This document shows, piece after piece, positions 57,401 through 60,400 of a stretch of DNA of 64,000 nucleotides (its first letter is position 1; every line of letters begins with the position of its first letter). The position numbers and the translations under genes were made by a program. The stretch lies in assembly GCF_032062105.1 (NCBI RefSeq), contig NW_026932728.1, positions 124,001-188,000 of the forward strand, in the 5' to 3' direction. The notes beneath the pieces are model-generated. The model saw only the letters and a program-made list of their open reading frames with translations, searched no databases and was not told the DNA's origin. Origin of the DNA: Saccostrea cucullata. Lineage: Eukaryota.

Positions 57401-60400
57401 GCCCGCCCACTGACGTCAAACACAGAGACAGACGCACGAAGTTTACATGCATGTTTAGCCTGGGTATTGAGACATCGACCTCAGTCTTTCTCCCTTGTTC
57501 AGTATCGTCAAGCGGTCATTAACATTTCTGATTGTGGGGTACTGAGACACCAGACTAAGTCTTTCTCCTTTATATTTCAGTATCGTCAAGCAGTCAGTAA
57601 TGAGGGAGGGGTACTGAGACACCAGCCTAAGTCTTTCTCCTTTATATTTCAGTATCGTCAGGCGGTCAGTAATGAGGGAGGGGTACTGAGACACCAGCCT
57701 AAGTCTTTCTCCTTTATATTTCAGTATCGTCAGGCAGTCAGTAATGAGGGAGGGGTACTGAGACACCAGACTAAGTCTTTCTCCTTTATATTTCAGTATC
57801 GTCAGGCAGTCAGTAATGAGGGAGGGGTACTGAGACACCAGCCTAAGTCTTTCTCGGCCTTTGGGTTCGGAGCCTCTGAGGGTTCGACCTTGACCTCCCA
57901 GTCATCTCGCCGTGGCTCACAGATTAACGTCAATGTGGCGCCATCACAACCCATGACCGAAGCTCTGAGTGACACGCCAGAAATCCGAAAATACAAGAAA
58001 AAATTCTCCTCAGACATCTTGTGTGCTGCATTATGGGGTATGTGTTTGATAATTTACTGCTTTTGTGAGTGTTGTGTAAGACAAAGATCAGTTACTCCAT
58101 AAATTTTCAGTTTCAAAGCTCTTTATCATTAAGATTTCTCTTTTAATCTTGAAAATGACTTGTTTATTTTTATTGAAAATCTGTAATACAAAATGAATTT
58201 TTTAGGGGTCAACTTACTCATTGGCACAGAAAATGGTTTGATGCTATTGGACAGAAGTGGTCAGGGAAAAGGTAGGTCAAAGTTAGGGTAAAACAAGGTT
58301 TAGATTCATACAAGATCAGTATTTGAGTATTTTGTAATTTAGGTAATAACAATTAAAAAAATTGAAAAGCAATGTCTGGTTTTAAATTTAGGTGTTAAAT
58401 ATTTGTTTGGTGGTTCACATATTTAACTCCCCATTCCAGTCTGATTTAATATCTTGGCTACATGTAGATATTGGTGTATTTAGTTTACACTTTGATCTTA
58501 CTGCTGAGATATGTAACATTATTTCTATTTTAGTTTACACATGAATCTCGCGGCTGTTAGAGGGGTTGCTTTATGTTAAATGTTATTTCTATTTTAGTTT
58601 ACACATTGATCTCACGGCGGAGATTCCAACAGATGGAAGTCTTAGAGGGACAGAATATTCTGGTCACAATCTCCGGCAAGAAAAACAAAATCCGCGTCTA
58701 CTATCTGTCATGGCTGAACAACAAAATCTTCAAAAAGGAAGCGGTGAGCAGACTCAATTGATATGATTTTCTATGGATTATCCTCATTATTGGAATCACA
58801 ACATTATTATAAATTAATCATTAGTTGTAAGTTAGTTCTAACACACAAATTATGACACTTTGGTCTTTTTTTATGAGCAGAATGACAGAAGGAATGGCTG
58901 GGTGAATGTAGGAGAACTGGAGGGGTGTGTCCACTTCAAAATAGGTAAACTTCCTGTGCAATGTGTGGCAAAGGGATGTAACTCAGATTCGTTTTTTAAA
59001 CATTTGTTATAAAGATAATGTTGGATGTGAAATGTATATATTCAACATAGCCAAATATTTCTTATTGCCCTTAAGTAATCTGTGATTCTGAGAACTGCTT
59101 GTTGAATTTGGCGATTCGTTAGTTTGAAATCAATCTGCAACAATTAATTTTCGTGACTGAGGAAACATTCTCTACACATACTTATCAAAATTATTGGTTC
59201 GCGGTGATTAATGTTTGCAAATAAAAGTAGGTTGTGGAATTTGCAAATATTTCTTGCCCACGAATAAAAGTTTGTTTACAGTACACTGTATTACATGTAC
59301 AAGTTTTGTATTTATTGTGATTGATATATTATATGGACAAGTTTTGTTTTTACAGTTAAGTATGAGAAGATCAAGTTCCTTGTGATAGCCTTACAGGAGA
59401 GTATAGAGATTTACGCCTGGGCTCCCAAACCTTACCACAAATTCATGGCTTTTAAGGTGAGACAGGAATAATTCAGAGAGATCTATTGCTAACTTATTTA
59501 TACTTACTGATAATAACGTTACCATATACTGTGTCCTCTTATTGTAAAGGCAATATAACATGAATATTTGATTTTGATTTTTTTTTTTTTTTTTTTTTTG
59601 CAGTCTTTCACAGATCTAGTCCACAAACCATTGATAGTTGACCTTACAGTGGAAGAAGGTCAAAGGTTAAAGGTTCTTTATGGTTCCCATAGTGGTTTCC
59701 ATGGCATCGATGTGGATGAAATGTTGGCGTATGACCTGTACATTCCCACACATGTAAGTACTGTATGTGGCACATGTGAGTACAGTGTGTGACACATGTT
59801 TGTGGACACAAGTGTTTAGAATTAGTGTAGTACACTTAGGCCTGTATTGTGAAATTGTTTTATTTGAGTAGAACTGTTTCTGAAAATAGATTGAGTGTAG
59901 ATTTTCTATTTATGTTATTCCAGTAGTTCTCTGTAATATTCCTTTCCTTGCCTAATCTCTTTGTGATAGTTTTTGTACTGTGTGATACGTCGGTGTTTCG
60001 GTGTCGGCGTCCCAGGTTAAGTTTTTTGGAGCAGTTTTCTTTTTAAGTCTTCTATGTCTATATTGATTAGACATGCATGGAAGATGCTTCTAGTGTGTTT
60101 CATTGATGTTTGTGAAGTTATGATCTTGGTAGTAGTCTAAATTATGTTAGTCCTTTACTGTTTTTATTAGTACTTTATGATTCAATAGTCCTGTATTTTG
60201 TACCACTGATTACTTCATAGTACAAAAGTCCTGTACTTGGTACCACTTGTAATGTTATAGTACAGTCTTTAGTACAATACTGTATATCTGTTTTTTTTTT
60301 TTCGTGTGTTGGAAGTTTTGCGAAAAAGGGGTAGATTAGTGCAGTTTAAATTTTGTGTAAGATATTTTTCACGATTGAAGATTTTTTATGGTTTAAAATG

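Follow-up and report, generated by a model that had tools for sequence, protein, structure and literature searches.

The closest systems so far described are the mirages of amphioxus, minisatellite-like duplications of 10-160 bp at intron-exon boundaries whose inner units are homogenised and which apparently leave splicing undisturbed (PMC3087553). A second paper describes the amphioxus mirages of Adh, troponin C and PGBD5 in the same terms (PMC3902484). Two human duplications are also close. In CBS c.844_845ins68, 68 bp of an intron/exon junction are duplicated, the more distal site is much preferred and the resulting mRNA is normal (PMC2630376). The 37-bp VNTR of intron 7 of F7 spans an exon-intron boundary, its extra sites being functional and normally silent (PMC1557585). 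No report of mirages in oysters was found in the literature searched, a body of text that lay mostly outside subscription journals.

The window considered here, a stretch of 64,000 nucleotides from the oyster Saccostrea cucullata, contains a splice-junction minisatellite, a mirage of this known type, within the gene of a protein kinase (Table 1). I propose, with a probability of about 0.65, that the array is silent, that splicing takes place at its last acceptor, and that the kinase keeps a single copy of the repeated segment. By this proposal the spliceosome would use the last acceptor and remove the additional copies as part of the intron. Exon definition, set by the 58038 donor, could make the choice, since the last acceptor would define an exon of 241 nt and the others exons of 313-535 nt.

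Table 1. Features of the kinase gene and its junction array in the window
Feature	Position	Strand	Remarks
Misshapen/MIG-15/MAP4K4-type kinase gene	15371..63761	+	34 coding exons in the model built here, for a kinase domain, a linker and a CNH domain
Upstream exon	55910..56037	+	phase 0 end; GT donor at 56038; joints in 4 of 4 runs
End of dispersed repeat adjoining the array	57384..57461	.	41 other places match within query bases 2-82
Decayed partial unit 0 and weaker first acceptor	about 57462..57502	+	scores 8.7 on the splice matrix, where the other acceptors score 11.3
Unit 1, 78 nt	57503..57580	+	ancestral 22-codon length; 85% identity to inner units
Units 2-4, 72 nt each	57581..57796	+	first 59 nt of the exon, then 13 nt of tract with AG; 97% identity
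True exon, 241 nt, from last acceptor	57797..58037	+	form in both RefSeq isoforms and all oyster relatives fetched
Exonic microhomology AGTCTTTCTC	57846..57855	+	similar to what precedes the tract; likely zone of crossover
Further junction copies in the kinase gene	donors 28303, 35662; acceptors 33210, 58598, 63120; weaker donor 59753
Donor-side mirages	28303-28385, 35662-36096, 59753-59799		units of 30-33, 71-103 and 22 nt

Two RefSeq proteins of S. cucullata, P0001 and P0125, agree with the host gene exon for exon, and P0001 has the N-terminal kinase domain (residues 25-288) and C-terminal CNH domain (720-992) by which the Misshapen/MAP4K4 family is recognised. The repeat unit corresponds to residues 641-660, ahead of the start of the CNH domain at 720. 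Some other properties of the gene may be recorded in passing: two cassette exons (28623-28703 and 60748-60807), each present in just one of the two RefSeq isoforms; a 19-kb intron (36413-55364), the other introns being much shorter; and an exon (21110-21190) with a GC donor (21190-21192).

The original prediction described five in-frame tandem acceptors ahead of the CNH domain, and its anatomy of the array stands. The AGs end at 57502, 57580, 57652, 57724 and 57796, the units between them are 78, 72, 72 and 72 nt long and all share the phase of the upstream exon, positions 57503-58036 read without a stop into the exon that leads to the CNH domain, and the pyrimidine tract is indeed translated as FIFQ. 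TRF reports a period of 72, 4.4 copies, 97% matches and a score of 612. Acceptors 2-5 are identical over 20 nt and have equal scores (11.3, the median of the gene being 10.2) on a splice matrix that was trained on the kinase gene itself, the site at 57797 included. Because only 13 intron bases were copied, branch points within the array must sit in exon-derived sequence, and candidate branch-point words lie ahead of acceptors 2-5, at distances of 23 and 36 bases. The array occurs once in the assembly. A 21-base word across the junction occurs four times in the 1.17-Gb assembly, always at the kinase locus (its reversed control, 0 times), and in a DNA search with the array region the array part matched only that locus in the assembly. 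The junction was also sought in metagenomes, with 0 matches.

All this is what one would look for in a mirage: a tandem duplication across an exon-intron boundary, in units of minisatellite size (72 and 78 nt, against a reported 10-160 bp) that keep the AG/GT signals, the inner units homogenised (97% among units 2-4) and the edge divergent (85% for unit 1, and a decayed unit 0). In amphioxus, Adh3, BflGb6, BflGb9, troponin C and PGBD5 resemble the oyster array in having the 3' end of an intron and the start of an exon in tandem (PMC3087553, PMC3902484). They also have in common with it the kept splice signals, the contrast of inner and edge units, differences between haplotypes, and an effect on acceptors and donors alike. 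The differences begin with the host, an oyster and not a lancelet. Every junction of the oyster haplotype is in frame and free of stops, so inclusion would be productive, and whereas normal splicing was reported for amphioxus (by RT-PCR for the globins), that of the oyster array is only partly shown. Of the human cases, CBS c.844_845ins68 has one extra copy and the oyster array four or more, with turnover, while the F7 VNTR lies at a donor, where scanning lets the first site win, and the array lies on the acceptor side. The counterparts of the F7 VNTR would be the donor arrays of the oyster kinase gene at 28303, 35662 and 59753.

How old is the array? The near identity of its copies had been read as a sign of youth, which holds for units 2-4 (70/72 identical) and fails for unit 1 (66/78, or 85%) and for the decayed unit 0. 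The region 57400-57502 aligns to unit 3 with a local score of 53, and the highest score in 500 shuffles is 40.5. Judged by its sequence, the array is older at its edge than had been thought. Unit 1 has 22 codons, the length seen in O. edulis and S. echinata, as against 20 in the working exon. Since unit 1 retains the 22-codon length, the first duplication would predate the 6-nt deletion in the working exon. The codons in which unit 1 differs from the true exon, 4 of them amino-acid-changing and 4 silent, would fit decay, small as the numbers are.

The origin suggested for the array in microhomology has gained support. The word AGTCTTTCTC is common to the exon and to the stretch preceding each tract, and in the DNA of organism C (run X9) the tract follows a non-unit intron that ends in AGTCTTG, almost the AGTCTTT of the exon. 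The tandem copies likely began by a slip between two look-alike 10-base words, through template switch or unequal crossover. A crossover after the extra G of the intron would produce a 72-nt unit, in frame, and one before it a 73-nt unit. Growth would then proceed by unequal exchange, by which inner units are homogenised and outer ones left to decay. An ancestral-like intron end is found in loose ends of X9 and also of X4, a DNA run from an oyster labelled B. X9 has no 72-nt array and no cover over 57478-57779. At 57780-57963 it has three versions of acceptor plus exon, one of them with 17 differences and 9 bases missing; this decayed version possibly comes from a larger duplicate, and organism C is therefore not proven to be single-copy.

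It is one thing to possess five acceptors and another to use them. One view of splicing comes from three raw oligo-dT RNA runs that carry label B, X21-X23, whose similarity to the window is mostly 90-95% and of which 44-47% was read per run. They yielded 151 junction reads from 56037, which by run fall on 57581 (18, 5 and 10), 57653 (19, 20 and 13) and 57797 (28, 21 and 17). Taken at face value, this is a ladder of three acceptors. As proof of alternative acceptors it was rejected as a multi-mapping artefact, for the reads differ from all units and they end where the exon-like part of a unit ends. The longest short side is 59-62 letters in the 85 reads at the two upstream acceptors, which is just where that part ends, and 71-73 at 57797. 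The depth at 57661 is 19, 20 and 17, and the junction reads there number 19, 20 and 13+3, so that at most 1 read crosses into the tract at this point. Because the short sides reach no further than 62 letters and the depth at 57661 equals the count of junction reads to within one read, the mRNA in X21-X23 has one unit and the tract is not entered, in animals that were not genotyped for the array. On splicing in carriers of the array this bears only indirectly, through the array in X4, a DNA run of the same label, and the contigs of X1 and X2 described below are ambiguous.

The proteins tell a similar story. Misshapen, MIG-15, MAP4K4, TNIK and MINK1 share with the window gene the layout of kinase and CNH domains and a pair of motifs near the repeated segment. 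When the repeat-bearing frame served as a protein query, 7,994 candidates (313-2000 aa) were scored, and among the matches listed none spans more than 59% of that query. The motif YRQA[VI] occurs once in 115 of the 140 proteins fetched and is missing from 25; it is repeated in 0 of 140, though the query carried the repeat, and the tract peptide is likewise absent from all of them. Both RefSeq isoforms of S. cucullata that were seen have one unit, which must be read with the knowledge that such models are automatic and would favour a form resembling the relatives. The segment is repeated in no fetched member of the group, and its inclusion would set the two motifs 24-98 residues apart. The second motif, [ST]FxxFGF, comes after YRQA[VI] in 115/115 invertebrate Misshapen proteins with the first (P0001 641-665 and relatives). 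The linker around the pair is otherwise variable, no Pfam family covers it, and the two may possibly form a binding or regulatory motif.

An open frame can also arise by chance. When junction duplications were simulated at 31 other acceptors of the kinase gene, 7400 of 28434 (26%) came out in frame and free of stops. Arrays similar to that of the window were found in runs from other oysters (X4, and X1 and X2 from organism A), in short-read contigs from which no copy number is obtainable. Their unit variants differ, some shared and some private, and the junction contigs of all three runs hold one-base insertions, a G at the site of the extra G and in X2 also a T. A unit so lengthened to 73 nt sends the next unit into a stop at codon 7. 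Because of these insertions, the frame is not kept across haplotypes. A productive coding repeat ought to show frame and coding constraint, and what is found instead is the insertions and the 4 amino-acid changes of unit 1.

The contention that the array encodes a productive 24-residue repeat tunable by splicing is therefore mostly contradicted, by the one-unit reads of X21-X23, the 140 proteins, the 73-nt units, the 26% expected by chance and the decayed outer unit. It keeps some room, which I judge to be small, on account of RNA contigs in X1 and X2 that hold much tract-to-unit sequence. In its strongest form, the upstream acceptors are substantially used and the mRNA contains 1-4 in-frame repeats of 24 residues, 60-80 residues before the CNH domain, in numbers that vary by allele or tissue. 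This is unlikely, but it is the alternative that survives best, and it can point to the window itself, with its stop-free, in-frame junctions and like acceptors.

X1 and X2 come from one sample of organism A and, though labelled DNA, are taken as RNA because of spliced contigs (GT..AG joints in X1). They are the RNA closest to the window: the upstream exon has 0 differences, and downstream of it 6 positions in 175 differ. In both runs the upstream exon is found joined at 57651. At the exon-to-tract joint, the short side of their contigs is just 21-30 letters long. In X1 the tract-to-unit contigs listed sum to a depth of 64, the spliced junction has 52.3, the exit 46.2 and the upstream intron 5.3. 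In X2 they sum to at least 123, and junction and exit both have 21.8, the value for the junction having been obtained by subtraction. The equality leaves little room for unspliced molecules. Also on the side of inclusion, the contig of X1 that carries the intron at 5.3 ends at 57513, and the variant contigs further in stand at 13.6-26.4. Passes through the tract per spliced junction vary between the two runs, 1.2 and 5.7. Against this, the depth of contigs says little about expression, and a k-mer graph does not reveal to which copy the donor is joined. The depth might also have come from a second satellite locus, a possibility that was rejected, for there is none in the S. cucullata assembly.

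The array RNA of X1 and X2 fits either real inclusion or unspliced RNA that runs over about 12 units. The latter, if it is to account for everything, requires those 12 or so units in the animal of organism A (the window has 4 tracts) and about 10 times the unspliced RNA in X2; the coverage fall-off in X1, when scaled, allows 5-17 times. I prefer the unspliced reading, because the junctions of stop-bearing, frameshifting 73-nt units (depth 18-23) are about as deep as those in frame (14-33). Given nonsense-mediated decay, stop-bearing junctions are more readily accounted for if the RNA is unspliced than if it is mRNA under translation. X4 bears on this as well. It has the array, with one record that bridges the exon-to-tract joint by 39 + 55 letters, and its variant contigs have depths of 49-75, compared with 78 for the flank contig. 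Since each has about the depth of the flank, the variants look single-copy, a result that would favour inclusion if organism A were alike. Gaps in cover over the downstream exon in X4 and the upstream intron in X2 carry no weight, the records having been filtered.

If most of the array-rich RNA in organism A is unspliced, then the array may slow the removal of its intron. A second alternative, less probable than inclusion, is that the array modifies dosage in an allele-dependent way and encodes no protein repeat: the use of upstream acceptors, or the holding back of the intron, would lower the amount of full-length kinase, products with 73-nt units stopping before the CNH domain. It would make sense of the deep contigs with one-base insertions in X1 and X2, and of the contigs of the array intron in X1, at 3.7-5.3, where bins wholly inside three neighbouring introns have 0. 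However, the array intron exceeds its neighbours in length by a factor of 3-10 and has dispersed repeats, and the raw reads of X21-X23 have no depth in its unique parts. Finally, it is very improbable that the copies in the window are assembly stutter: the assembly is fragmented (23,869 contigs), and the array at 32405-33291 leaves no contiguous normal exon, but the differences between units are patterned, and independent junction contigs of X1, X2 and X4 carry both shared and private variants. The array is real, and its exact copy number of five is that given by the assembly.

Silence of the array, the reading I favour, would extend mirages to oysters, in a genome where, for the genes tested, a local copy of the junction is present at roughly 3-9% of splice sites. 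It would also provide a warning, for mirages mislead both read mapping and gene models, as in the false ladder of acceptors and the odd RefSeq reading at the array near 33 kb. The one unusual feature of the oyster mirage is that its units are in frame and that a close relative has array RNA at high depth. It is conceivable, if doubtful, that in some rock oysters the mirage is leaky or exonic, with upstream acceptors used in a share of transcripts that is large and differs by tissue, the single base at the breakpoint deciding the outcome. A 72-nt unit would then give a MAP4K4 with extra 24-residue repeats and a 73-nt unit a kinase cut off before the CNH domain. Such a mirage would be turning intron into coding repeat and would constitute a natural allelic series for the choice of the spliceosome among identical acceptors. 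Were the in-frame units included, this would be a rare mirage that alters a signalling kinase otherwise conserved, and 3' splice-site choice could easily be studied in it.

The array is not the only junction copy in the neighbourhood. By the measure used, 6 of 66 splice sites in the kinase gene have one, a count that includes the present array and leaves the weaker donor copy at 59753 below the cut-off, and so do 115 of 1500 random intronic positions (7.7%). In myosin genes the count is 4 of 116 splice junctions, against 61 of 1500 random positions (4.1%); this rests on 78 of 102 gene matches (20 regions), in which 116 of 156 ends passed the splice-matrix cut and boundaries are predicted, not annotated. 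Other kinase loci were left out of the count, their top matches being mostly large exons. At the level of positions, an enrichment of junction-spanning repeats in the S. cucullata genome was therefore rejected, both rates being at the intronic background. Because their frequency is about that at random intronic positions, junction copies appear to be widespread in the genome and close to neutral. The spare sites of the other copies in the kinase gene are mostly out of frame or lead to stops, and the spare donors of the donor-side mirages, where checked, lie behind a stop or out of frame.

Several of these copies deserve mention on their own account. Decayed copies of acceptor plus exon start precede two CNH exons, at 58470-58597 and 62948-63119. 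The array at 32405-33291 is an acceptor mirage with units of about 49 nt, and all 15 candidate acceptors tested there run into a stop. Here the RefSeq model has LYIEEKG and S. echinata FPEEEKG, and the model seems to need a new GT-AG intron; the locus is either misassembled or a rearranged allele, possibly with the gain of an intron. Four more junction-spanning duplications, three at donors and one at an acceptor, are found at the myosin loci L075, L074, L086 and L081. Lastly, upstream of the kinase gene, at 1798-1951, there are two copies of a 75-nt unit in which a tract like that of an acceptor and a short stretch resembling an exon occur together with a donor; the first copy has lost its AG.
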